This document shows, in pieces, positions 43,370 to 55,749 of a stretch of DNA of 61,574 bases; positions within the stretch are counted from its first letter, which is position 1; every line of letters starts with the position of its first letter. The notes below the pieces were generated by a model. That model made no database searches. It was given only the letters and a program-made list of their open reading frames with translations, and had not been told where the DNA came from. This DNA is from Gemmatimonadota bacterium. GTDB taxonomy: Bacteria > Gemmatimonadota > Gemmatimonadetes > Longimicrobiales > RSA9. The position numbers and the translations under genes are program-made. The DNA is taken from assembly GCA_017881445.1 (NCBI GenBank), contig JADGQX010000003.1:1-61574 (forward strand), given 5' to 3'.

Positions 43370-43892
43370 TCACCCTCCGGGTGCCGCTTCGAGCTCCTCG
43401 CACACCCAGAGGTCCATCTCGACCGCGGCTCGCACCTGAAGTGCCGCCCTGGACTCTGCCGTCCCGATCCGCCCCAGCGCCCACGCCGCGTGTCCGCGCA
43501 CCAGCGGCTCCGGGTCCTCGAGCGCGCGCACCAGCGCCGGCACCGCCTCGGGCGCGCCCCAGTTCCCCAGCGCCACGGCGACGTTCCGGAGGAATCCCGC
43601 GCGGCGAGCCCGCCGGATCGCCGAGCCGCGCGAGAACTCGTCCCAGGCCGCCTCGTCCATCGCCAAGAGATCGGGGAGCACGGGGTAGGACGTGCCCGGG
43701 ACGGTCCGTCGTGAATCCGAATCCAGGCGCGCAGCGCCGGAATCCAGCGCCGCAGGCGCGGAGTCCGAATCCGGTCGTTTCGAGCCCGAGCCCGAGCCCG
43801 AGCCCGGCCGTGCAAGGTATCCCCTCTCCCGCGTCAGCCGCACGAACTTCTCGCCATTCCACGGGCAGACCTCCTGGGAGATCTGCCGACTC
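43370..43892 (-). pseudogene. queG 3'-end copy A (from the distal Fe-S motif to the stop)
   Basis: It begins ...SQEVCPWNGEKFVRLTRERGYLAR (CQEVCPWN with the first Cys replaced). It continues AMDEAAWDEFSRGSAIRRARRAGFLRNVAVALGNWGAPEAVPALVRALEDPEPLVRGHAAWALGRIG, near-identical to full-length QueG at 54399..55658. There is no N-terminal catalytic part. Confidence 0.8.
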
Positions 43893-44051
43893 ACCCGTTT
43901 CAGAATCTCGCTCCGGACGGGGTCGCGGAGGTTGTGACTGCCATTACGGACGCGGTCGGTCGGTGCCGAGCAGCTCCAAGCGGCGGCGCATCGCTGCAAC
44001 CCGTGGTTGGAGCGGCCCGGCGGGGCGTGCGGCCAGGGGACTCCAGGCCGG

Positions 44052-46046
44052 TCACCTGCCGCCGCGCGCAGTGATCTCCAGCACGACCACCGAATACGGC
44101 TTCAGCTCGATGGACAGATCACGCCCGTAGGCGATTGTGCTCTCGACCGGCGCGATCCGGTTCGGCTCGGCCAGCGACGCGGCGTCCGTCGGGGCCCCGC
44201 TCACCGTATACAGCGTCGCGCCGGCGTCGGCCGGCACGCGGGTTCCCTGCAGCCGGACGAGGAGCGTGTTGCGGCCGCCCTCGTAGTTCACCGCCTTGAT
44301 GACGATGCGGCGGCCGTCGGCACTGGAGGTCGCAACGGCATCCACGGTCCCCGGCCGCCAGTCTTCCGGCTTCATCTGCGAGATGTCGTCGAAGAACGGG
44401 CGCCGGTCCGGCAGGTCGCGGAAGGTGCCCCGGGCCGAAGCCAGGTAGTTCTCCCCGTAGTGCTCGCGGAACAGCTTCTCGACCACGTAGCCGCCGCCCG
44501 GGAACCACGTCACGTGGTCGTGGTAGATGAACGACGTCCAGGTCGGGTCGTCGGTGGTGTTGCGCAGCAACAGCGCCGGGCAGGCCATGGTCAATTCCGG
44601 TCCCAGCCGCTCGTACAGCATCAGCATGCCGGCCGCGTGAAGACCGGCCCGCCAGTCGTAGGTGCGGCTGAGATTCCACTCCAGGACGCCGAGCCTGAGG
44701 TTCGGGTGCTTCGAGCCCCGCACGTAGTCCCGCAGCTTGACCAGGTAGTCTTCGATGCGCTGCACGCCCGTCTCGTAGAGATCGCTCTCGTACTCGTAGT
44801 TGTGCACGCCCAGCACATCGAAGTTGTCGCCGGCCAGGTCGATGACCTTCTGGCTCCAGGCCATGTCGTTGGAGCGTTTCTGGCCACAGGCGACGATGGT
44901 CGCCCCCGGAGCGATGCGGCGAAGCTGGCCACCGTACAAGTTCACGATCTCGGCGTACTTCTCCGGCGTCAGCCCGTGATTCATGGGCTCGTTGTCGATC
45001 TGGAACATGTGCACGCCGTACGGTGCCGGATGCCCGTTCTTCGCCCGCAGCCGACCCCACTCCGTGGTCTCCGGGTCGTTCAGGTAGTGCACCCAGTCCA
45101 TGGCGTACTGCACGGAATCCGGGTCGGTGGTGGTGGCGGGCAGAACCACGAGCGGCTCGGTCTGGACCTCACGGGCCAGTTGCATGAATTCCTCGGTGCC
45201 GAACCCGTAATAGTCCGAGTAGCCGCCCCAGAGCACGTTCGGGTGGTACACGCGGGAAACCGCCGGCCCGATGCCGTCCTTCCAGCGGTAAACCGAGGCG
45301 TATGACCCGCCCGGCCAGCGGATGAACGGCGGAGCGAGCTGCCGTATCGCCTGCACCAGGTCCGGTCGGAGCTTGTCGGTCGCACGCAGGTCCGCCCGCA
45401 TCAGCGACACGAAGTCGATGAGCACGGCGCCGGAGCGCGTTGCGGCGATCTCCACGGACGCGGCGGTGTCCGTGCGCACGCTCGTGAACGCGAACCGGGC
45501 CTCCTGCCAGGCCGAGCCCGCGACCGGTAGCGGCCGCTCCGCCATGAGCCTTCCGTCCGAGCCGATCACCCGCAGCGCGAGCCGCGGCGTCCCCGCTTCA
45601 CGGCGGACCCACAGGGAGCCATCGTAGCGCCGTCCCGCTTGCAGGTAGACCCGGCCCTGGCGGATCCCGGCGGCGGGCCTGCCCGCCACAAGGCGCACGC
45701 TCTTCTCGCCGCGCTCGAACGGCACCTGCGCCACCTGCACCCGGCCGGAATCGCCGAACGCCCGCCAGTAGGTCGCGAAATCGCTCCCCTCGAAGCCGCT
45801 CCCTCGGATCTGCTCGGCGTACAGCCCGTCCACGACGGAGTGGTTGATGTGCTCCAGGAAATGGCCGTAGACCTTGACGTCGATGGGGCCGATCCTGTGG
45901 TCGGTATCGACCAGCAGAACCGAGACGCCCGGTCCACGCGACCGATCCGGCCGGCTCTGCGACTGGCCCGCTGCCGGAAGCCCAGCCACGCCGCATCCGA
46001 GCAGCAGGAGCGGGAGGATGCCGAGTCTGCGCTGGAGGTGCATCAA
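44052..46046 (-). CDS. GH51-like alpha-L-arabinofuranosidase
   Basis: The signal peptide is MMHLQRRLGILPLLLLGCGVAGL. The layout is an N-terminal CBM-like domain, a catalytic region (IRWPGGSYASVYRWKDGIGP, FQIDNEPM) and a C-terminal beta-sandwich. Confidence 0.6.
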   Translation of the reverse strand: MMHLQRRLGILPLLLLGCGVAGLPAAGQSQSRPDRSRGPGVSVLLVDTDHRIGPIDVKVYGHFLEHINHSVVDGLYAEQIRGSGFEGSDFATYWRAFGDSGRVQVAQVPFERGEKSVRLVAGRPAAGIRQGRVYLQAGRRYDGSLWVRREAGTPRLALRVIGSDGRLMAERPLPVAGSAWQEARFAFTSVRTDTAASVEIAATRSGAVLIDFVSLMRADLRATDKLRPDLVQAIRQLAPPFIRWPGGSYASVYRWKDGIGPAVSRVYHPNVLWGGYSDYYGFGTEEFMQLAREVQTEPLVVLPATTTDPDSVQYAMDWVHYLNDPETTEWGRLRAKNGHPAPYGVHMFQIDNEPMNHGLTPEKYAEIVNLYGGQLRRIAPGATIVACGQKRSNDMAWSQKVIDLAGDNFDVLGVHNYEYESDLYETGVQRIEDYLVKLRDYVRGSKHPNLRLGVLEWNLSRTYDWRAGLHAAGMLMLYERLGPELTMACPALLLRNTTDDPTWTSFIYHDHVTWFPGGGYVVEKLFREHYGENYLASARGTFRDLPDRRPFFDDISQMKPEDWRPGTVDAVATSSADGRRIVIKAVNYEGGRNTLLVRLQGTRVPADAGATLYTVSGAPTDAASLAEPNRIAPVESTIAYGRDLSIELKPYSVVVLEITARGGR

Positions 46047-46197
46047 TGCGCTCCGGGTGAACAGCGGTGATGGCTCCGGGCAGGTCGGGGGCCCGGCGCG
46101 CCCCGGAGCGAAAATAGCCGACGGCGGGCGTAAAGCGCTCCATTACCACTCGAGACGGCGGCGATGGGGCCACGCCGCCGTCCGACCGTAGCAGCGG

Positions 46198-47730
46198 CTA
46201 GCGCGGAACCACCGTGACGATGATGCGCTTGTAGCGCGAAAGCGCCGGCGTGCCCTTGTCCGTCACCCGCAGGATGAGCTGGATCGTCTGCGGCGTGTCG
46301 ACCTGCGGCGCCTGGACGTCGATATGGATCTGGTTCGGCACAAAGTCCAGCCGGCCCCTGTACGTACCTGCCTCCGGATACTGGAACCAGAAGTAGCTCA
46401 TCGAGTCGCCGTCCGGGTCCGTCGAGGCGCTGGCATCGAGCCTGAAGTATTCGCCCGAGTGCACCGCGAAGCTGTCGGCGCCCGCCAGCCGGGGCACCGG
46501 CGGGTGGTTCGCCTGGGTGAAGCTCTTCACGGTCCAGTCCATCCGCGCAGCGAAATCGTTCTGGAAGTCGTCCCGCCACCGCAGGAGCGTATACCGGTTC
46601 CCGCGGTAAACGGCGGTGTCCAGGCGGAATGCTCTCCCGTACGTCTGGGGCACGATCGGGGAGTAGGCGTCGTCCGCGTTGGTCCAGATGGGACGCGTCT
46701 CCGCCACCGGTGCCTTCTCCTTGCCGGGCTCGGCGAGGTTGTTCGACAGCGGCGTTGGCTCGGGGACATACAGCTCGTAGCGCCCGCCCCACCCGCCCCA
46801 GCTCGGATGCTCGGGCGCATTCAATCCGTTCGGAATCAGCCCCAGGAACGACGGCGTATCTCCCTCCATGCCCCAGGCGACGTCCGGGTAGGCGGCGCCG
46901 AGCGGACCATGCCCCTGCTGGATGTTCTCGGCGATCCAGCGGTTGCTGATCCGCTCGCTCTGCGTCGACGGATCCGGCTGGGTAATCGCCGTCCACGTGG
47001 AGCGGCCGTAGTCTCCCGGACTCACGATGTAGAACACGCTCGGAAACGTCCGCCGGATCCACGGCCCGGAATCATCCTGGTCGGATATCGTGTAGACCCG
47101 CAGCTTTCGGTAGAGCCGCTCCGCCTGCGCCGGCGAGCGGGTGTGCTGGACCTTCCAGAGCGCCTGCGCGAGCGCGGTCGGCCCACCCCACACCGTCACC
47201 CAGACCGGCCGCACGTCCGGCTTCTCCAGGACCCCTATGATCCATTCCGAGGCCTCGGAGTCCTTTCCCTCCCCCACGCCCGCCATGCCGTACATCGCCA
47301 AACTCTGCTTCACGAGCGCGTGCAGCGCACCGGCCGTCGGATAGCTCGGGTCGTGGAGGAGCAGGTTCGCGTGCACCTTCCCGTACGCGTCGATGACCCG
47401 GTGAATCGACTCCGGCGCGACCCGGTTGCGCTGCCAGGTCGATGTGGTGGCGATCAGGCCCTCGATCTGGATCTCGTTCGAGTAGAGCAGCAGGCGAACC
47501 ATCGACTCGGTATCGTCCGGATCCGCCTCGATGTCCGTGAGCACGACGACCCGGTTCCTCGCGGCCGCCCGCGCCGCCTGGGCGGCCGCTGCCGGCGCCA
47601 GACCGAGGAAGCCGCCCGCGCACACCCCGAGTGCCAGCAACCGGACGAATCTCCCGCAACGGCTCGGCCTCCTCGAGTGACGGCTGAGAACGTTCCCCAC
47701 CGCAGGTAACGCCGAAGTGTGGCGATTCAT
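46198..47730 (-). CDS. DUF1593 (nucleoside-hydrolase-like) domain protein
   Basis: RVVVLTDIEADPDDTESMVRLLLYSNEIQIEGLIATTS is the typical DUF1593 N-terminus, followed by a C-terminal Ig-like domain. Confidence 0.7.
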   Translation of the reverse strand: MNRHTSALPAVGNVLSRHSRRPSRCGRFVRLLALGVCAGGFLGLAPAAAAQAARAAARNRVVVLTDIEADPDDTESMVRLLLYSNEIQIEGLIATTSTWQRNRVAPESIHRVIDAYGKVHANLLLHDPSYPTAGALHALVKQSLAMYGMAGVGEGKDSEASEWIIGVLEKPDVRPVWVTVWGGPTALAQALWKVQHTRSPAQAERLYRKLRVYTISDQDDSGPWIRRTFPSVFYIVSPGDYGRSTWTAITQPDPSTQSERISNRWIAENIQQGHGPLGAAYPDVAWGMEGDTPSFLGLIPNGLNAPEHPSWGGWGGRYELYVPEPTPLSNNLAEPGKEKAPVAETRPIWTNADDAYSPIVPQTYGRAFRLDTAVYRGNRYTLLRWRDDFQNDFAARMDWTVKSFTQANHPPVPRLAGADSFAVHSGEYFRLDASASTDPDGDSMSYFWFQYPEAGTYRGRLDFVPNQIHIDVQAPQVDTPQTIQLILRVTDKGTPALSRYKRIIVTVVPR

Positions 47731-47909
47731 GGGCTCCTCGGGAGTGAACGACGGACGTGGCGCCCTCGGCTATCTACGGTCGACCCGCGGCCGCCGTTCC
47801 ACAAGAGGGGATCAGAAGCGCACGGGGTGCTGGACACCGCCAAACCGGGCGACGCTTGCCGCTCCCGGATGAGGCGGGCAACCAGGCTTCTACGAAAAGA
47901 CCCCCTCCC

Positions 47910-48173
47910 TCAGGCGGCCCAGAGCAGGAACACCCCGGCCGCGAGCAGCAGCGGCGAGCTGTAGACGCCCGGCATCGCCGGCCTGAAACGGATCGAGCCG
48001 GCGAAGTGGCCCAGGGCATTGCCGATCCCGATGAGGATGGCGAGGGGCCACGCGATGAGCCGCAGCGGGTGACTCCCACCGAAGGCAGCAGGCGACAGCA
48101 GGAGCAGAAGGACGATGCCCGCGATGAGACCGCCCAGCCACACTGTGAGCACGTCGCCGACGAAGCCACCCAT
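47910..48173 (-). pseudogene. C-terminal fragment of a small polytopic membrane protein (possibly HXXEE-domain family)
   Basis: MGGFVGDVLTVWLGGLIAGIVLLLLLS...NALGHFAGSIRF...LLLAAGVFLLWAA covers only about 87 aa. No credible N-terminus lies upstream. Confidence 0.35.
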
Positions 48174-48387
48174 GACTTCCTCGCGGTCTACAATCCCGTG
48201 GCGAGGACCGTTCGCGAACAACGCGCGGTGCAAGCAGACGTACAACGCGCTGACGCCGCCAGGAACGTGTCCGCTCTGCGGCGGGTGTACGGTTTCCGTG
48301 ACCCCCTTGGCTGGCGAGCACGGGAGGGGAACCGCGCTCGGCGGACGCCGGTGAGCAGCGCCCGCACCATCGCGACGAGCGACCGGG

Positions 48388-48465
48388 TGTTGTTATCCAG
48401 CGCGCCACCACGACGAGATCGTTCAGCGGATCGACGTAGATGATGCGAGGACGGTTACCCGGTCC
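48388..48465 (-). pseudogene. relic of a serine hydrolase / beta-lactamase-family C-terminus
   Basis: GPGNRPRIIYVDPLNDLVVVARWIT resembles the conserved G-x-GGQ-x-I-x-VDP-x-x-DLVVV segment of class-C beta-lactamase-like hydrolases. No ORF context surrounds it. Confidence 0.35.
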
Positions 48466-48510
48466 CGCCCGCCTTCGCCGCATGTGGCAGCGGCGACTCA
48501 ACCGGCCCTG

Positions 48511-49132
48511 TCAATCCACGCCGTCAGGCGGGGGGGCGAAAGCAAGGCGGATCTCCTCGCGCACGCACCGGTCGTCCTGATGCTCAAGGCGTACTTCGAG
48601 CGCCGCCAGCGCTTCCGCCGTCCCGATCCTCCCCAGCGCCCACGCCGCATGCCCGCGCACGAGCGGCTCTGCGTCCTCGAGCGCCCGCACGAGCGCCGGC
48701 ACCGCCTCAGGCGCCCTCCAGTTCCCCAGCGCGACCGCGACATTCCTGAGAAACCCCGCCCGTTTGGCCCGCCGGATCGCCGACCCTCGCGAGAACTCGT
48801 CCCAGGCTACCTCATCCATCGCCATGAGATCGAGGAGTGCCGGACCGGAGGTGTCCGGGATGGAAGCGGAAACCCGCGAGGCTGAGGCCGCCCCTTCCGA
48901 GCCCGAATCCGAATCCAGCGCCGCAGGCGCGGAATCCGAATCCGTGTGTTTCAAGCGCTTCCGGGTCCGGCCACTTTCGGAGAAGCCGGATTCGGATTCG
49001 GATTCCGGCACTGCGTGCCTGGATTCGGATTCGGTGAGGCGCGACGCCCGAGGAAGGTAGCCCGGCTCCCGCATCAGCCGGACCATCTTCGGGCTATTCC
49101 ACGGGCACACTTCCTGGGTGGATTGCCGACTC
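48511..49132 (-). pseudogene. queG 3'-end copy B
   Basis: It begins ...TQEVCPWNSPKMVRLMREPGYLPRA and continues through a long Ser/Asp/Glu linker to AMDEVAWDEFSRGSAIRRAKRAGFLRNVAVALGNWRAPEAVPALVRALEDAEPLVRGHAAWALGRIG. Homology to copy A starts at the same nucleotide position (GAGTCGGCA on the coding strand). Confidence 0.8.
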
Positions 49133-49222
49133 CGTGGATCCCGCCTGACCCTCTCGGTTCGCTTGGGCAACGGCGCGCCGCCCTGGGCGGTCTCCTCCTG
49201 CCACCACGCGCCGACCAGATTG

Positions 49223-49329
49223 CTTTGAAAGCTTTCCCGACATATCTTTCAAAGCATGCCTGGGCATTGAAAGGCCGTCGACCTGCCGCCCCGGAGGCTT
49301 TGTAAGGCTTCGTGGCACACCTTTCAAAG
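49223..49329. promoter_or_regulatory. cluster of CTTT(C/G)AAAG 9-mers upstream of fic
   Basis: CTTTGAAAG lies at 49223-49231, within the palindrome GAAAGCTTTC (49227-49236). CTTTCAAAG is at 49246-49254, TTGAAAG at 49267-49273 and CTTTCAAAG at 49321-49329. The patch is locally AT-rich. Confidence 0.4.
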
Positions 49330-49356
49330 CCCCTCGCCGTTCTGAAAAGGTCCTCG

Positions 49357-50520
49357 ATGGACGCGATGACGAGTACCCGGGCCGGGCGCCCCGTGACGCA
49401 GCAGGGCGGGCGTGATGGCTACGCCGCCTTCGTCCCGGCGCCACTTCCCCCGGAACCGGCCATCGCCGTGACGCCAGAGCTCCGGCGGTTGGAGGAGGAG
49501 GCAGCCCACGCGCTGGGAAAGCTGGAGGGTGTCTCCGCCACGATTGACCCGGACCGACTGCTGTACATGTACGTCCGAAAGGAAGCGGTGCTGAGCAGTC
49601 AGATCGAGGGCACCCGGTCGACGCTGACCGACCTGCTCCAGTACGAAGCCGCAGGCGCCGAGGGGACGCCGGTCGCCGACGTTCGGGAGGTGAGCAGCTA
49701 TGTGGCGGCGCTCTACCACGGCCTTGAGGCCATCCAGACGGGCAGGCTCCCCCTGAGCTTGCGGCTCCTGCGGGAATTGCACGGAGTGCTGGTGAGCGGA
49801 CGTCGAGGGGGCGACAAGGCTCCGGGGGAGTTCAGGCGAACGCAGAACTGGATCGGCGGGACGCGGCCGGGCAACGCTCGCTTCGTGCCCCCTCCGCCGC
49901 ACGAGTTGATGCCTGCACTGGGGAACCTCGAGGGGTTCCTGCACGACGAGTACGGTCCCACTCCGGCTCTGCAGAAGGCTGGGCTGGCGCATGTCCAGTT
50001 CGAGACGATCCACCCCTTTCTCGACGGGAACGGCCGCATCGGGCGACTTCTCATCAGCCTTGTCCTCGTAACAGAGCGCCTGCTCACACGCCCCTTCTTC
50101 TACCTTAGCCTCTACTTCAAGGAGAACCGCGCCGACTACTACGATGCGCTGCAAAGGGTGCGCACGCACGGCGACTGGGAAGGCTGGCTGCACTTTTACC
50201 TGGTGGGGGTGGCCTCAATCGCGAACCGAGCGGCCGAAACGACCCTGTTGTTGCGCAACCTCTTCGAGGCAGACCAGCAGCGGGTGCTCGCTCACGGGAA
50301 AGCCGCGAAATCGACGCTGACCGTCTATGACCTATTTCGGCGTCGTATCGTCGTCTCACCCGGTCGCGCCGCCGAGGAAACGGGCCTTACCTTGCCCACG
50401 GTCAGGAACGCCATCCAGAACATGGAGGAATTGCGGATCGTGCGGGAAACCACGGGACGGAAGTGGGGCCGACTCTACGTCTACTCCGAGCAACTGCGGA
50501 TTCTCAACGACGGCCCGTGA
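49357..50520 (+). CDS. Fic-family protein (class II, N-terminal inhibitory helix; C-terminal winged-helix)
   Basis: It has the canonical Fic motif HPFLDGNGRIGR and the inhibitory motif S-x-x-x-E-G in VLSSQIEGT. The start is ATG 49357; the alternative GTG is at 49312. Confidence 0.85.
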   Translation: MDAMTSTRAGRPVTQQGGRDGYAAFVPAPLPPEPAIAVTPELRRLEEEAAHALGKLEGVSATIDPDRLLYMYVRKEAVLSSQIEGTRSTLTDLLQYEAAGAEGTPVADVREVSSYVAALYHGLEAIQTGRLPLSLRLLRELHGVLVSGRRGGDKAPGEFRRTQNWIGGTRPGNARFVPPPPHELMPALGNLEGFLHDEYGPTPALQKAGLAHVQFETIHPFLDGNGRIGRLLISLVLVTERLLTRPFFYLSLYFKENRADYYDALQRVRTHGDWEGWLHFYLVGVASIANRAAETTLLLRNLFEADQQRVLAHGKAAKSTLTVYDLFRRRIVVSPGRAAEETGLTLPTVRNAIQNMEELRIVRETTGRKWGRLYVYSEQLRILNDGP

Positions 50521-50554
50521 CGGCCGGCGCATTCATGCCGTCCAAGCACGGACA

Positions 50555-50785
50555 TCAATCCGGGTGCGCGAGGGCGGCGAGGTCCAACTCCTCCAGCACC
50601 GCCCCGTCCCGCTCCCGCGCGAGCCGCACCTCCAGCGCCGCCCTCGCCTCCGCCGTCCCGATCCTCCCCAGCGCCCATGCCGCGTGCCCGCGAACCAGCG
50701 GCTCCGGGTCCTCGAGCGCCCGCGTCAGCGCCGGCACCGCCTCAGGCGCTCCCCAGTTCCCCAGCGCCACCGCCACATTGCGCAG
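50555..50785 (-). pseudogene. queG 3'-end copy C (shortest)
   Basis: RNVAVALGNWGAPEAVPALTRALEDPEPLVRGHAAWALGRIGTAEARAALEVRLARERDGAVLEELDLAALAHPD. Nucleotide homology to the other copies stops abruptly after ...CACATTGCGCAG (about 50785). Confidence 0.75.
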
Positions 50786-50936
50786 CCTCACCCCGAAGCC
50801 CGCTGCCACGCCGGTGAGAAGCACTCTTGACCCGGCGATCCCGCCCCGCCCATGCTACCAAAGTAGCCGAAATGGCGTTTGGATTTCCTATCCCTTCCCT
50901 TCTCGACCAGAGCCGAAAAGCGACAATCCGGCGCCG

Positions 50937-51261
50937 TCACCGCCGCGCGATGGTGGAGAGGTCATGGTCGTGGTGGTGGCCGTGACCATGATCATGGTGA
51001 TGGGTCGTGATCATAGGGATGGAGATGACCGTGCTCGCCCGGCGGATCCCCGCCACCGACCAGGGCGAACCGGCACACCGCCATCCCGCGGCTGGTTCCC
51101 TCGGAGAGCGTCGGCTGTCCGCACTCCCGGGGCATGACGGCCGCCAGATCGGCGAACACGCGCGGGCGGAGATCCGGCCGCGCATCAAGCAGCGCCGCGA
51201 CGAACATGTCGCCCGCGATCCCGCCGACGGCATCCAGGTGGATGTGCAGGGACCTAGTCAT
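50937..51261 (-). pseudogene. larC: larC (nickel-pincer cofactor Ni-insertion protein) N-terminal fragment, frameshifted and truncated
   Basis: The ATG overlaps the larA stop (GATGACTAG). MTRSLHIHLDAVGGIAGDMFVAALLDARPDL is the LarC N-terminus. The His-rich tract HHHDHGHGHHHDH lies in another frame and a stop follows at 50937. About 115 of an expected ~400 aa remain. Confidence 0.55.
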
Positions 51262-52549
51262 CGCCGGCAAAGACCGGGACCACATAGGGTCCCTCGGGGA
51301 TCACGCCCAACGACAGATCGTCGTGGCGTTCGAGGCTGGCACGAACGGCCTGCTCCACCGAGTCGACCAGCTCGACGCCAGTGATCCGGCGCTCCTCGCT
51401 CGTCAGCCCGGTGGTGAAGAGCTGGATGCGGCCGATACGCATGGGCTTGAGCTGCATCTCGGTCTGCCACTCGTCGATTTCGGCGAACGACTTGGCCTTC
51501 AAGGTCGCCAGGAAGCGGTCAGGGCCAAGCTCGACCATCCGCGCCTGAGCGTTGCGAAACTCGTCGGAGCCGAACCCTTCGGAGCATTCCGAGGCGATGA
51601 TCAGCGTGCCGCCGGGAGCCAGGATATCCATCGGGGTGACCATCCCCTTGACGGTCTGATAATAGGTCTTGTCGAGCGGATAGCCGGCCGAAGACGTCAG
51701 CACGGTCTTGAACCGACGCGGAATCCTGACCGCTGTCGACGCCTCGATAAACGCAACCGCGGTCAAATGGCTGGCGATGACTTCGCCGAAATTTACGTAG
51801 ACCAGATCCCTGTCTTCATCGAGAATCGTGTTGATGGCGTAGATTTCACCGATCTTGCGTACGATCTCCAACTGCTCCTCGTGCAGCGGATTGCCCACCA
51901 GATTGCACTGCACGGCGAGCGGATCCTCCATGAAACGCGCCGAATGGAAGGTGCGGATCGTTTCATGGTGGGCGACACCGGGAGCCACCACCTTGCGTCC
52001 GCCCGACCAGCCGGCCATGAAATGAGGCTCGATCAGGCCGGAGACGATGCGCAGGTCGGCGTCAACGAAGCGCCGGTCGATCTTGACCGGGATTCCCCGT
52101 CCGGTCCGGCCCAGGTCAACATGGGCCGCGTCGTCGCGAGCGAAGTGGTTTTCCACCCGCACGGTTTTCAGAACCCAGGGGTCGCCGACCAGCTCTTCGA
52201 GCTCCGTCCCTTCGTTCGCGCGGTGCAGGCCGGTCGCGACAACGATCGAAATGCCGTCACGCGATAGCCCGGCCTGCGTCAGCGTCTCGATGATCGGCCG
52301 CAGAAACAGCTTGTTGGGGACCGGCCGGGTGATGTCGCAAATCAGGATGCAGGCGCTCTTGCGATCTTTGGCCAGTTCGCCGAGCGGCTTGCTGGCGACC
52401 GGAGTCCCGAGCGCCTGGCGGACGGCCAGCGGCTGGTCCGGGAGCTTCGCCAAGGCGACCTTGCGAATGATCGTCGGCTCGGCCTCGGCCGGCAGCGCCA
52501 CATCCAACTGACCCCGGCCGAAGGCGATCTCCACCCGCTCATTCATCAA
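51254..52549 (-). CDS. larA: LarA-family nickel-dependent racemase/epimerase (DUF2088)
   Basis: ILICDITRPVPNK, VATGLHR and GLIEPHFMAGWSGGRKVVAPG align by eye with lactate racemase LarA landmarks. The ORF is full length at 431 aa. Confidence 0.8.
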   Translation of the reverse strand: MMNERVEIAFGRGQLDVALPAEAEPTIIRKVALAKLPDQPLAVRQALGTPVASKPLGELAKDRKSACILICDITRPVPNKLFLRPIIETLTQAGLSRDGISIVVATGLHRANEGTELEELVGDPWVLKTVRVENHFARDDAAHVDLGRTGRGIPVKIDRRFVDADLRIVSGLIEPHFMAGWSGGRKVVAPGVAHHETIRTFHSARFMEDPLAVQCNLVGNPLHEEQLEIVRKIGEIYAINTILDEDRDLVYVNFGEVIASHLTAVAFIEASTAVRIPRRFKTVLTSSAGYPLDKTYYQTVKGMVTPMDILAPGGTLIIASECSEGFGSDEFRNAQARMVELGPDRFLATLKAKSFAEIDEWQTEMQLKPMRIGRIQLFTTGLTSEERRITGVELVDSVEQAVRASLERHDDLSLGVIPEGPYVVPVFAGDD

Positions 52550-52642
52550 CGCTCTCCTTGCCCAAATCCCATCGGTTCGTTCCGGCGCCGGCGACCCGGC
52601 GCGCCGCCGGCAAGAGCGGCGCCCTTGTCGCTGGCCGCCGAA

Positions 52643-53568
52643 TTACGTATGCGCGATCTCAGGCGCCATCGCGACCTCGTTCTCCTGGTTCGCCGGCTCC
52701 TCTTCACCCTTCATCGTCCCGAACTTGGCGGCGACGAACGCAGTGACGAGCGGGACCATGACCGCGGTGATGACCACCGCCGCCGCGACCAGGATGGTGG
52801 CGCTTTGGGCCGCATCGGCGTAAACGGGATTTGCCGCCGCGATGATGGCAGGCACCGCCGCGGCGTTGCCCGCGGTCGACGCCGCGGCCACACCTGCCAC
52901 GCCGGTTCCTCCGGTCAGGCGATCCACGAAGAACAGAGCGATGCCGGTGACGGCCACCACAGCAACGCCGACGCCAACGCCGAGCAAGCCGGCGGACCAG
53001 ACCTTGCTCAGGTCGAGCGAGGCGCCGAGGCCGAAGGCGAAGAACGGGATGAGGCCGGGCGCGATCTTGCCCAGGAAGCCCCGCATCTCGCGGTCCAGGT
53101 TACCCATCGCCATGCCGATCCGCAGCGGAAGGATAGCGCCCAGCATGGCCTGCCACGGAAACGCGGCCAGCCCCGCCATTCCGAGCGTCACCATGGTCAG
53201 AAACGGCCCGGACTCCAATCGCCGCCACGATCGCCAGAGTGGAAAGCCCCGCGAACATGCCGCCGCTGATGGGCGCCTCCCCCAGAAAGTGGCCGAAGAT
53301 GAGACCGAAGGTGGCGCCGATTCCGATCTTGGTCAGAAACAGCGAACCGCCTTTCTTGAGGACACGCCTGGATGTCGATGCTGGCGCCCATGCAGACGAA
53401 GAAGGCGGCCAGAGTCGGCATGGGGTTGAACAGCGCCCCGGTGAACGATCCGAAGAACTTGGGTGTCTCGGGAAAGAAAGTATTGATGATGGCGCCGGTC
53501 AGCAGTGGAACGACCATCATTCCACCCGGAACCTTTTCGATCAGGCGCTTGATTCGAATCTGCATCAC
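52643..53568 (-). pseudogene. kdgT: 2-keto-3-deoxygluconate permease KdgT, disrupted
   Basis: The N-terminus MQIRIKRLIEKVPGGMMVVPLLTGAI...FFVCMGASIDIQ is in one frame. [16 protein letters not shown]...[14 protein letters not shown] is in a second frame. [15 protein letters not shown]...[14 protein letters not shown]... is in a third frame (ORF 52643..53218). About 30 codons are missing between the last two segments compared with E. coli KdgT as I recall it. Confidence 0.6.
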
Positions 53569-53889
53569 AGGAGCTCCCCTACTGGTCCGGACGGCAAACG
53601 TTGAAGCAATGGCATCGCAGCACCTCGACGGCCGCAGTAGAACGCGTCAGGCGTGGCTGCCACGCCAGCCGGCATTGTTGCGAAGTGGAAATATCGCGAC
53701 TCGGCCTCCTGGAGCGCCACGTTTCGTACGCATTCACCGACCTCCACGCGAAGCTCACCAGCGACCTCGGTGGCGTGAGGCGGCTCAGCGTCACCGCCCA
53801 TTTCAGCGCCGAGGCGTTGGGGGACCTGGATCACAGCGACAGCGCCGTCGTCGACTCGGACTGGTCCAACCGCGCGCTGGCCGTCCACT

Positions 53890-54390
53890 ACCGGACGGCG
53901 CCGGCGCAGTCTCTCATCGCCGATCTGTCGGCATCCTCAGCCAGTTTCACAGCAGGTTCCTGCTCGAGGGCGGCGATCCGCCGCAGCTGGACGCCCGCGG
54001 CACCATGCGCGACGCGCAGGGGACTGCGGAGCTGTGCTGGTATGCCGCCCCCGGTGTGGCGGTGGCCGGGGGAATCTGCGCGGGCGCCTTCTCCAGCGCG
54101 GATTCCGTGGCCGTGGCCGATCCGGACGTGGGCGAGATCGTGGAGCCCTCGTGGGCCCGCGGCCGCAGCAGCCCCGTCGGAAGGATGTGCTGTAAGAACC
54201 GACCGATGAAGGCATCCACCGGCAGCGGGAGCCGCTTCGTCTCGTGCGACTGCGCATGGGTGTAGCGGAACGTGACGCGGCCATCGGTGAAGGACTCCAG
54301 CGCGTGGTTGCTGAGGGCCAGGCGATAGACGTACCGTGAGAGATAGCGCAGCGCGTGCTCGCCGGTCCCGACCGCGGACTTCGACGGCAA
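53890..54390 (-). mobile_element. IS91/IS801-family (Y2 rolling-circle) transposase, C-terminal fragment, degenerate
   Basis: GEHALRYLSRYVYRLALSNHALESFTDGRVTFRYTH...LPLPVDAFIGRFLQHILPTG resembles the conserved C-terminal half of IS91-family TnpA. The frame breaks after LPTG, and the N-terminal catalytic part is absent. The fragment starts 9 bp from the queG stop. Confidence 0.45.
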
Positions 54391-54398
54391 GAGGTGGC

Positions 54399-55658
54399 TC
54401 AGTCTGGAACCGCCGCGATAAGCTCATCTCGCACGTAGGCATCCTCCTCCACTGCCCGGCGCTCCTCCAGCGCTGCCTGCGCCTCCGCCGTCCCGATCCT
54501 CTGCAGCGCCCACGCCGCGTGCCCGCGCACCAGCGGCTCCGGGTCCTCGAGCGCGCGCACGAGCGCCGGCACCGCCTCGGGCGCGCCCCAGTTCCCCAGG
54601 GCGACCGCGACGTTCCGCAGGAACCCCGCACGACGAGCGCGCCGGATCGCCGACCCGCGCGAGAACTCGTCCCAGGCGGCTTCGTCCATGGCGATGAGGT
54701 CGAGGAGCGCAGGCCCGGAGGTGCCCGGAATGGCGGCCGCCGCTGCCCGTCCCGAATCCGACTCCGAATCCGGCCGTTTCGGGCCCGGGCCCGGGCCCGG
54801 GCCCGTTTGTTCCGGCGGCCGCGGCGCCCGCGCCAGATACCCCGGCTCCCGCGTCAGCCGGACGAACCTGGCGTTATTGAACGGACAAACGGATTGGCAG
54901 ATGTCGCAACCGAACACCCGGTTGCCGATGGCCGGCCGCAGCTCGCGCGGGATCGGGCCGCGCAGCTCGATGGTGAGGTAGGAGATGCAGCGGCGGGCAT
55001 CGATGACCGGGGCGCCGGCGTCGTCCCGCCCCAGGAGCGCGCCGGTGGGGCAGGCGCCGAGGCAGGCGTCGCAGGAGCCGCAGCGATCCTCGGCGAAAGC
55101 CAGATCGGTCTCCAATTCCAGCTCCAGCAGCAGCGTGCCCAGGAAGAAGTAGGAGCCCGCCCGCGGGTCGATCATCATGGTGTTGCGGCCGAACCAGCCG
55201 ATGCCCGCGCGCCGAGCCAGCTCCCGCTCCAGCACCGGAGCGGTGTCCACGCTGGCGCGCGCCAGCGGCAGCGCCTGGCCGACCTCCGCCTCCAGCCAGC
55301 GGAGCAGTTCTACGAGCTTCGGTTTGATGACACGGTGGTAGTCGCGCCCCCGGGCGTAGCGGGCGACGACGCCGCGGGAGGGATCGTCGTCGGCCGCACC
55401 ATCGTCGCCTGGATGGTAGTTCTGGCAGACAACGAGGGCGCTGCGGAGCCCCGGCTGCGACGCCGCCGGCTCCAGCCGCCGCTGGACCGCGTCCGCCCGG
55501 GCCAGGTACGCCATCTCGCCGTGACGCCCTTGGGCCAGCCAGGCTCGGTAGAACGCCGCGTGCTCGCTGGGACCCAGCCGCGCGATGCCCGCGCGGTCGA
55601 ATCCCAGCTCCAGCGCCCGCGCCTTCAGGCGCGATTCCAGCGTCGCGTCCGCCGCCAT
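54399..55658 (-). CDS. queG: epoxyqueuosine reductase QueG (full length)
   Basis: The N-terminal DUF1730-type region has GEMAYLAR. Two ferredoxin-type motifs (CGSCDACLGACPTGAL and CDICQSVCPFN) are followed by a C-terminal HEAT-like domain. An unusual PGPGPGP/SESDS linker is inserted between them. Confidence 0.9.
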   Translation of the reverse strand: MAADATLESRLKARALELGFDRAGIARLGPSEHAAFYRAWLAQGRHGEMAYLARADAVQRRLEPAASQPGLRSALVVCQNYHPGDDGAADDDPSRGVVARYARGRDYHRVIKPKLVELLRWLEAEVGQALPLARASVDTAPVLERELARRAGIGWFGRNTMMIDPRAGSYFFLGTLLLELELETDLAFAEDRCGSCDACLGACPTGALLGRDDAGAPVIDARRCISYLTIELRGPIPRELRPAIGNRVFGCDICQSVCPFNNARFVRLTREPGYLARAPRPPEQTGPGPGPGPKRPDSESDSGRAAAAAIPGTSGPALLDLIAMDEAAWDEFSRGSAIRRARRAGFLRNVAVALGNWGAPEAVPALVRALEDPEPLVRGHAAWALQRIGTAEAQAALEERRAVEEDAYVRDELIAAVPD

Positions 55659-55701
55659 GCGTCTAGTCTACCCGGGCACGCCCGCCCCGGTCCGGGCCAT
55701 G

Positions 55702-55749
55702 GCGGGAGAGCGGGAGAGCGGGAGAGCGGGAGAGCGGGCGAGCGGGAGC
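55702..55749. repeat. 8-bp tandem repeat (GCGGGAGA x4 perfect plus 2 degenerate units)
   Basis: Read directly from the sequence. It lies in the 260-bp divergent intergenic region between queG and the MqnA/D-family gene. Confidence 0.85.

Follow-up and report, generated by a model that had tools for sequence, protein, structure and literature searches.

What could have left three displaced ends of one housekeeping gene, with foreign segments between them, downstream of an intact copy of that same gene? The question is raised by contig JADGQX010000003.1 of a Gemmatimonadota bacterium (assembly GCA_017881445.1). In the window, that is, the whole stretch of 61,574 nt that was analyzed, full-length queG, encoding epoxyqueuosine reductase, is followed downstream by three partial copies of its 3' end (C, B and A), all on the minus strand like queG itself. 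Our best reading is that 43.4-54.9 kb of the window is an array of three mobile cassettes inserted successively at a fixed queG site. Serial insertion of such recombinase-less cassettes at a fixed core sequence in queG, driven by a site-specific recombinase acting in trans, is an account to which we give slightly better than even credence. An earlier note on this DNA had located the four same-strand copies, which our repeat search, translations and pairwise identities confirmed, and had proposed serial insertion of foreign segments at queG, which is supported by the same geometry, with different cargo, in many Gemmatimonadota. Literature searches, in agreement with the note, found no account of queG as an attachment site. 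The features on which the argument turns are listed below, where the arm is a degenerate queG-derived stretch at the head of a copy and the core is a 24-bp near-palindrome.

54399-55658, minus strand: full-length queG, 419 amino acids (aa) (translation; Pfam DUF1730, Fer4_16 and HEAT_2)
54884-54907, minus strand: predicted core inside window queG, GCGACATCTGC-CA-ATCCGTTTGTC, encoding CDIC-Q-SVC
50555-50806, minus strand: copy C, HEAT-domain end only, with the arm, the core and ~300 nt deleted (homology, Pfam)
48511-49155, minus strand: copy B, with a shortened arm (~49155-49117), the core GGCAATCCACC-CA-GGAAGTGTGCC (49127-49104) and the 3' part to the stop at 48511
43370-43935, minus strand: copy A, with the arm (~43935-43877), the core GGCAGATCTCC-CA-GGAGGTCTGCC (43887-43864) and the 3' part to the stop at 43370

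The repeat search of the window recovered these four sequences as a single 300-nt repeat family (43383-43682, 48542-48841, 50577-50876 and 54412-54711) with 65-82% identity. Window queG retains the CxxCxxxCP motif and all three domains, so that the target gene is intact despite the downstream insertions, and the open reading frames (ORFs) of A, B and C, which gave only HEAT matches in Pfam, each stay open to their own stop. Over the HEAT part, the pairwise nucleotide identity among the four copies is 0.78-0.82, far beyond chance, with a synonymous divergence (dS) of 0.49-0.67 and a ratio of nonsynonymous to synonymous divergence (dN/dS) of 0.21-0.34, and by pairwise dS the four are roughly equidistant, in a star-like arrangement. 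This equidistance, together with the dS and dN/dS values, indicates that none of the window copies arose by recent duplication of another; the divergence appears to have built up mostly under protein-level selection, each end having resided in a different lineage before its arrival. The linker between the iron-sulfur (Fe-S) and HEAT parts consists of GAATCC/GGATTC and GGGCCC hexamer repeats (43713-43806, 48878-49034 and 54735-54805), which encode an Asp/Ser/Glu- or Gly/Pro-rich low-complexity peptide and differ in total length in every copy; the linker of copy B includes a 42-nt inverted repeat (48903-48944 and 48993-49034, 86% complementary).

The upstream limits of the copies proved more informative than they had seemed. 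Copies A and B, described earlier as beginning at the same nucleotide, do share GAGTCGGCA, which begins AGTCGGCA, at 43892 and 49132, but this is not their 5' limit: their homology to queG runs on in degenerate form for ~40-60 nt upstream of AGTCGGCA, to ~43935 in A and ~49155 in B, as an arm of ~55-60 nt plus the palindromic core. Copy C exists as a partial copy, as had been reported, but its homology begins at ~50806, adjoining a truncated larC gene, and its arm is lost. Compared with queG, the arm carries a 12-nt and a 3-nt deletion and lacks both Cys codons of the CDIC motif (GCDICQ to SRQ(I/S)(S/T)Q), changes that recur in A, B and the copies of distant metagenome-assembled genomes (MAGs) and occur in no genuine queG. 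Judged by these common deletions and lost Cys codons, the arms appear to be one lineage. The arm of copy B also has an internal deletion of ~21 nt, and this shortened type is found again in L098, P0002 and P0004 (L-numbers denote the loci compared and P-numbers the proteins compared).

The arm turned out to be a character of a whole family of partial copies. The same derived arm sequence is carried by a second partial copy that lies downstream of queG in L001, a Gemmatimonadaceae MAG; a motif scan of genomes found six loci, all from Gemmatimonadota, and the motif scan of metagenomes only six short contigs. A protein search with copy A gave 1921 matches, and short HEAT-only proteins (140-230 aa) were common among the 120 listed; the arm signature VRRPVxSGIxKRVSRHxxQEVCPWN stands at the N-terminus of most short proteins among 28 sequences retrieved. 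Scanning with an alignment of this signature yielded 70 loci, nearly all from Gemmatimonadota MAGs, and in total ~100 partial queG copies were collected from ~70 Gemmatimonadota MAG loci and several metagenome contigs. Neither the arm nor the DNA motif had a match in IMG/VR, and tblastn against plasmid and phage records returned ordinary queG genes only, none with the arm. Five arm-bearing contigs were binned as Kuenenia, Haliangiales, Acidobacteria, Sphingomonadales or Burkholderiales MAGs (L131, L135, L136, L137 and L156), and they represent either mis-binned Gemmatimonadota contigs or a wider host range. Public catalogues label many displaced queG ends of 140-230 aa as 'epoxyqueuosine reductase (QueG)' or 'HEAT repeat protein'.

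In 86 loci, we mapped the cores of genuine queG genes (CDIC) and those preceded by an arm. Wherever queG was in view (20 loci), every partial copy was found downstream of it and on the same strand; the arrays comprise two to six copies, with a core-to-core spacing of 0.8-9.8 kb, and repeats of the queG 3' end bounding inserted segments were seen also in L081, L087, L095, L102, L112, L142 and L169. Comparison with related genomes, which the earlier note had suggested, produced variable cargo and empty sites, in the form of nine Gemmatimonadota queG loci in which 6 kb or more of downstream sequence contained no second copy, but no integrase-bearing island. Among 95 non-redundant copies, conservation of the arm sets in abruptly ~55-60 nt before the core and grows stronger in its direction, and in-frame stops in the arms of several genomes imply that this conservation is not that of a coding sequence. 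Of 77 copies, about half are broken (37 look intact, 32 are truncated or decayed and eight are frameshifted), and the copies are thus unlikely to be required genes.

The 3' parts of the copies do not share the history of the arms. In a tree, they interleave with genuine queG ends and form no clade of their own. The 3' part of copy 1 in L087 is 82% identical to the C-terminal part of L001 queG, whereas the N-terminal parts of queG in these two hosts are only 63% identical, a contrast which implies that the 3' end has a horizontal history. The copy in L081 has no similarity to the queG of its host upstream of CCAGGAGG and ~95% identity to it over the next 110 nt, and the arms of P0009, P0057 and P0087 are identical, with divergence setting in straight after QE. 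Two Gemmatimonas species (L142 and L161; flanks with ~85% nucleotide identity) are collinear through queG and then carry different cassettes; copy 1 of L142 with its flank matches copy 2 of L161 with its flank (81% over 867 nt, from 3 nt before the core), and their arms differ despite the common 3' part and downstream flank. In independent cases, the junction between arm and 3' part falls at CCAGGAGG, copy C being too truncated to score. Such a mosaic pattern is expected if each copy is made of the arm of an incoming unit joined to a resident 3' end.

The junction lies at the center of the 24-bp near-palindrome GGCAnnnCTCC-CA-GGAGGTGTGCC, which overlaps the codons of the last Fe-S motif (CDIC-QEV-CP); written out, the site predicted in the copies is GGCACATCTCC-CA-GGAGGTGTGCC. 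The left half mirrors the right half at 8.8 of 11 positions on average in the 95 non-redundant copies, with six copies at 11/11 and 30 at 10/11 (copy A of the window is symmetric at 10 of 11), whereas the 20 genuine queG genes at those loci average 5.35 of 11 (Mann-Whitney p = 4e-11). The substitutions specific to the arm are exactly those that produce the mirror of the right half-site. An 11-2-11 dyad whose central dinucleotide is asymmetric is reminiscent of the hix and res sites at which serine recombinases cross over, and the analogy hints, speculatively, at a serine-type enzyme.

From these features, we infer site-specific recombination of circular intermediates by an enzyme that acts in trans and that the cassettes themselves do not encode. 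A cassette in its circular form would consist of the arm, as a ~55-60-nt non-coding relic of queG, the palindromic core, a complete replacement queG 3' end and cargo. Recombination at or next to the central CA would join the host queG to the incoming 3' end, keeping QueG intact, while the former 3' end would be displaced downstream, headed by the arm of the new cassette; repeated rounds would stack the displaced ends, with the newest cassette adjoining queG. In the window, copy A, beside dtpT, would then be the oldest displaced end, B and C would come from the first and second cassettes, and the part of queG downstream of 54895 would have been supplied by the third, most recent cassette. A later deletion would have taken the arm of copy C and part of larC, and the relic of an IS91 transposase and a broken kdgT gene would be signs of further decay. 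The contents of the cassettes, from queG to the host flank, are as follows.

53950-54398, minus strand: IS91-family transposase relic, 5'-truncated (Pfam Y2_Tnp, profile 96-172 of 183, E = 2.4e-18)
50807-53949, minus strand: remainder of cassette 3, with kdgT, larA and truncated larC (Pfam)
53646-52646, minus strand: kdgT, split over two frames (Pfam KdgT, profile 1-66 and 140-304)
52549-51254, minus strand: larA (Pfam Lar_N/LarA_C)
51258-50995, minus strand: truncated N-terminus of larC (weak Ni_insertion match, profile 2-59 of 375, E = 2.6e-4)
49156-50554, plus strand: cassette 2, with a single fic gene at 49312-50520 (Pfam Fic_N and Fic)
43936-48510, minus strand: cassette 1, with a membrane-like ORF, a Sde182/DUF1593-like gene, a GH51-like gene and the stretch after the copy B stop
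48392-47910, minus strand: membrane-like ORF, uninterrupted, 160 aa (no Pfam match)
47730-46198, minus strand: Sde182/DUF1593-like gene (Pfam)
46046-44052, minus strand: GH51-like arabinofuranosidase gene (Pfam)
43309-41774, minus strand: dtpT, taken as the host flank after copy A (Pfam PTR2)

These genes are largely those already described in the earlier note, but one of the two supposed relics (47910-48392) is the uninterrupted ORF of 160 aa, and the other has no Pfam match; a beta-lactamase-like relic just after the copy B stop was a guess without Pfam support and was dropped. The IS91 relic starts directly after the queG stop codon. GC profiling of the segments showed that, in a window of high overall GC (~0.70), the cargo is lower (down to 0.60-0.65) than queG and its upstream flank (0.71-0.75), and dtpT has a GC of 0.63-0.65 compared with ~0.70 in the genes beyond. 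Within the window, no further queG fragment was found downstream of dtpT, and in the nearest genomes neither dtpT nor the window cargo is syntenic with queG. The window contains no tRNA or tmRNA gene and no Rfam family, and the site is therefore neither an attachment (att) site of the tRNA type nor a known RNA element. A diversity-generating retroelement was considered and rejected, the repeats being 300-650 nt long, their differences not adenine-specific and reverse transcriptase absent. Two further repeat features were recorded: ~6 tandem copies of the 8-nt unit GGAGAGCG at 55697-55748, upstream of the queG start in the divergent intergenic region between queG and an mqnA-like gene, and two related 46-nt units with the palindrome GCTTTGAAAG...CTTTCAAAGC at 49210-49330, between the arm of copy B and the start of fic, which from their sequence and position may be a fic operator.

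Across the family, the cargo is highly variable: a census of 85 ORFs yielded 105 Pfam families. Among the cargo are aldo/keto reductases, LysR regulators, glyoxalases and Ser/Thr kinases; DUF2442, HipA, PemK and Phd/YefM, along with SIR2-STAND and CHAT-STAND proteins; and alpha-2-macroglobulin, M14 peptidase and Cu amine oxidase. Besides the window, fic is carried as cargo in three loci (L081, L129 and L134). A DUF4160-DUF2442 cassette (80-85% nucleotide identity) recurs at L180:3717-4215, L178:8229-8712 and L142:12160-12910, right after queG in the first two loci and between copies 2 and 3 in the third, positions that fit the entry of newer cassettes on the queG side.

Where, then, is the enzyme? 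Across ~95 loci (~1.1 Mb), we found no queG-linked recombinase, and neither the Pfam tables of contig neighbors nor Pfam scans of the loci contained one; in the window, nothing recognizable as a recombinase accompanies the IS91 relic. A motif screen of the ~1.1 Mb gave one tyrosine-recombinase candidate (L169:11489-12430), which was also the single match of a tyrosine-recombinase hidden Markov model (HMM), and one weak serine-type match that later phmmer and HMM searches did not support; no serine recombinase was found in those searches, which were seeded with the phiC31 and Bxb1 integrases. The tyrosine recombinase was rejected as the cognate enzyme, given that its relatives, spread over many phyla, have a conserved ORF upstream of them and do not lie beside queG copies. 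It is XerC/D-like and, together with a ~296-aa ORF, sits inside a six-copy queG array (L169:10596-12433; L169/L183, CAVUEU010000003.1); relatives of this two-gene module are found as a pair in Phycisphaerales, Myxococcota, Actinomycetota, Acidobacteria and Photorhabdus, sometimes several per genome, and the module has the look of a separate mobile element. When 905 ORFs from 86 loci were clustered all against all, no accessory gene was seen to travel with the arrays; the clustering yielded nothing beyond large families with many copies (TPR/kinase/STAND proteins, histidine kinases, MacB/FtsX-type permeases) and queG-syntenic genes. The earlier observation that no integrase is left in the window holds, but the absence of an integrase is the rule in this family and not a sign of local decay.

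Several observations weigh against serial insertion by a recombinase acting in trans. No recombinase was identified in cis or in trans, although outside the Pfam-annotated loci the screens relied on home-made profiles and few serine seeds, and neither an excised circle, whose assembled attP would be indistinguishable from a partial copy, nor a within-species empty-site polymorphism was observed. For the window itself, there is no exact match to the QueG protein on record, and hence no same-species empty site for comparison; the best matches to this QueG, from Gemmatimonadaceae and Longimicrobiales MAGs, reach no more than 58-60% identity. The core of window queG is symmetric at only 3 of 11 positions, the lowest value among 59 queG genes, and misfits a currently active site; its right half, CA-ATCCGTTTGTC (Q-S-V), departs from the near-universal CA-GGAGGTGTGYC (Q-E/D-V). 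Between diverged queG genes, identity extends furthest in the conserved CCAGGAGGTGTGYCC motif, so RecA-dependent crossovers would cluster there and could mimic a fixed junction, and the palindrome could have arisen from one quasi-palindrome template switch and then been inherited. Finally, truncated genes adjoin the stops of queG and copy B in the window, which implies that illegitimate events also shaped this array. With the arm of copy C lost, several cargo genes broken and the queG core mutated, the window array looks decayed and is possibly frozen; its degenerate queG core may mean that it can no longer recombine at the proximal site.

The main alternative needs no dedicated enzyme. One ancient partial duplication of the queG 3' end (queG-X-queG') could have spread by homologous recombination only, by transformation or by Campbell-type single crossovers through 300-600 nt of homology, with the arm as a passive hitch-hiker marking the original breakpoint. 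We regard this alternative as unlikely, while giving it real weight. No recombinase was found in or near ~100 cassettes; a circle bearing a gene fragment truncated at its 5' end would, by one crossover, produce precisely this geometry; and the truncated genes at the cassette edges in the window point to untidy events. The Fe-S motif, as the best-conserved stretch, would attract crossovers, and it is because this motif is also the longest stretch of identity between queG genes that the alternative keeps its place. Nevertheless, arms are common to Longimicrobiales-type and Gemmatimonadaceae-type genomes whose QueG proteins are only ~55-65% identical, a divergence at which homologous recombination is very inefficient. 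A neutral, vertically inherited arm should by now be unrecognizable and is instead conserved, in a gradient towards the core; the changes in the arm lift the symmetry from 5.4 to 8.8 of 11, for which a passive relic offers no reason; and independent events all break at the core. A recombinase acting in trans is thus favored for three reasons: the arm has been kept in lineages whose divergence would make homologous recombination inefficient, it does not code for protein, and it has evolved towards dyad symmetry.

The IS91 relic beside queG raises another possibility, one that the earlier note had listed. ISCR1 duplicates the 3' conserved segment (3'-CS) of complex class 1 integrons through rolling-circle capture, and an IS91 element next to a queG end might likewise mobilize neighboring DNA by read-through, the circles being rescued by recombination with queG so that its 3' end is duplicated. 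The Y2_Tnp relic directly after the window queG stop would suit such a capture, and the order of conserved segment (the queG end), IS91-like gene, cargo and partial second copy in the window parallels that of ISCR1 complex class 1 integrons. Intact IS91 transposases (Y2_Tnp and Zn_Tnp_IS91; ~90% nucleotide identity between MAGs) are present in or next to partial copies at L160:12789-14310, L151:4855-6223 and L128:539-1992, in L160 (at the LGN(Q)GT codons) and L151 directly after a truncated partial queG copy. However, these three loci and the window are the only four of ~95 with IS91 sequences, so that this option accounts for few loci only. The elements in L151 and L160 stand where a truncated copy ends and appear to be secondary insertions rather than cassette boundaries, possibly at a GAAC target, as the window's own copies suggest; the window relic is 5'-truncated, which makes its junction with queG a deletion scar and not an element end; and the family-wide arm and palindrome are left unexplained. 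As a general explanation, IS91 capture is very improbable.

Still less can be said for the two remaining explanations. That the partial copies function as separate HEAT-repeat genes, which arose from the QueG C-terminus, are maintained by selection and were duplicated locally, might be argued from the open frames of A, B and C with their dN/dS of 0.2-0.34 and from the 140-230-aa proteins that gene callers predict for many copies. But about half of the 77 copies are truncated, decayed or frameshifted, the arms contain in-frame stops and no conserved start codon, a weak consensus scan found no promoter-like site ahead of A or B, the 3' parts are interspersed with genuine queG ends instead of forming their own clade, and a low dN/dS is expected anyway if each end sat in a working queG before its displacement, all of which makes this explanation extremely improbable. 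Vertical inheritance of an ancient tandem partial duplication kept queG-like by gene conversion, with cargo from unrelated insertions, has in its favor a tendency of copies to be similar to the queG of their own genome (as in the window, L095 and L088), but it is hardly tenable given that copy 1 of L087 resembles the queG of another lineage more than that of its host, that the window copies are equidistant (dS ~0.5-0.67) and not homogenized, that occupancy is patchy among related genomes and that the same cassette occurs at different array positions.

Serial insertion of cassettes at queG has clear parallels among known elements. Cis-mobilizable elements (CIMEs) possess att sites without integration genes, can be moved by the recombinase of another element and have been described as decayed integrative and conjugative or integrative and mobilizable elements (ICEs and IMEs) (PMC5704250). 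Like the queG arrays, the ICE/CIME accretions at the fda 3' end in Streptococcus thermophilus (ICESt1/ICESt3) target the 3' end of a housekeeping gene, are bounded by direct repeats and stack in tandem. CIMEs, however, adjoin intact relatives bearing an integrase, whereas the queG arrays have no such relative in ~95 loci; the queG units are also small (0.8-10 kb), their duplicated segment is long (300-650 nt), their target is queG and their hosts are Gemmatimonadota. The islands of Prochlorococcus tycheposons have likewise grown by successive integrations at the same site, with partial tRNAs and degraded elements, and 937 integrase-carrying elements were found there (10.1101/2020.12.28.424599). 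As in the queG arrays, older elements are pushed inward and partial target copies are scattered, but the target is a tRNA and integrases are readily found, in contrast to a protein-coding target and no cognate integrase at queG. The analogy drawn earlier with the orphan cassettes of polymorphic toxins extends to geometry and no further.

The replacement of a gene end is itself familiar: phage 21 and e14, inserted at icd, carry a substitute 3' end. The target of Salmonella genomic island 1 (SGI1), trmE, is, like queG, a gene for a tRNA-modifying enzyme. SGI1 and phage 21/e14 resemble the queG cassettes in that a substitute 3' end keeps the target functional. Unlike the queG cassettes, in which none was found, both kinds of element have their own tyrosine integrase beside att, and their repeats are short (tens of bp for SGI1, ~165 bp at icd) compared with the long queG repeats. 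Tandem SGI1 arrays are known as well (PMC8409611, PMC2297512).

The resemblance to integrons is of another kind. Integrons, too, have recombinase-less cassettes, a repeated site, one fixed primary site and mixed cargo rich in genes of the toxin-antitoxin type (in the queG arrays, DUF4160-DUF2442, HipA, PemK, Phd/YefM and Fic). The queG arrays differ in having no intI at the primary site, repeats that are not attC-like and cassettes that are often multi-gene and in either orientation, and the queG repeat, unlike integron sites, doubles as the replacement end of a housekeeping gene. No intI was seen among the queG neighbors in the window (an MqnA-like gene and a PAS histidine kinase) or in L087 (a glycosyltransferase), and no organization of the attC type was seen, the repeats being queG ends of 300-650 nt with an 11-2-11 dyad. 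We tentatively consider possible, though doubtful, an integron-like system in which queG would be the primary site and the 'arm + 24-bp palindrome + queG 3' end' the cassette-borne site, and in which a dedicated chromosomal recombinase, not beside the array and possibly of the serine type, would insert, excise and reshuffle cassettes of 0.8-10 kb with toxin-antitoxin, defense, signaling and metabolic genes. With respect to known systems, what differs here is the queG target, the length of the repeat, the small units, the family-wide absence of an integrase and the defined 24-bp dyad.

If serial cassette insertion is the correct reading, queG would be a major and previously unnoticed hotspot of gene acquisition throughout a phylum of soils and sediments in which mobile elements have hardly been studied, and many short proteins that catalogues list as 'epoxyqueuosine reductase' or 'HEAT repeat protein' would be displaced gene ends, not genes. 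The design would lie between those of classical integrative islands and integrons, combining small recombinase-less units, a replacement gene end and a defined 24-bp site. The predicted site would offer a direct handle for finding the missing recombinase, and the pair of site and enzyme would be useful for the engineering of Gemmatimonadota.

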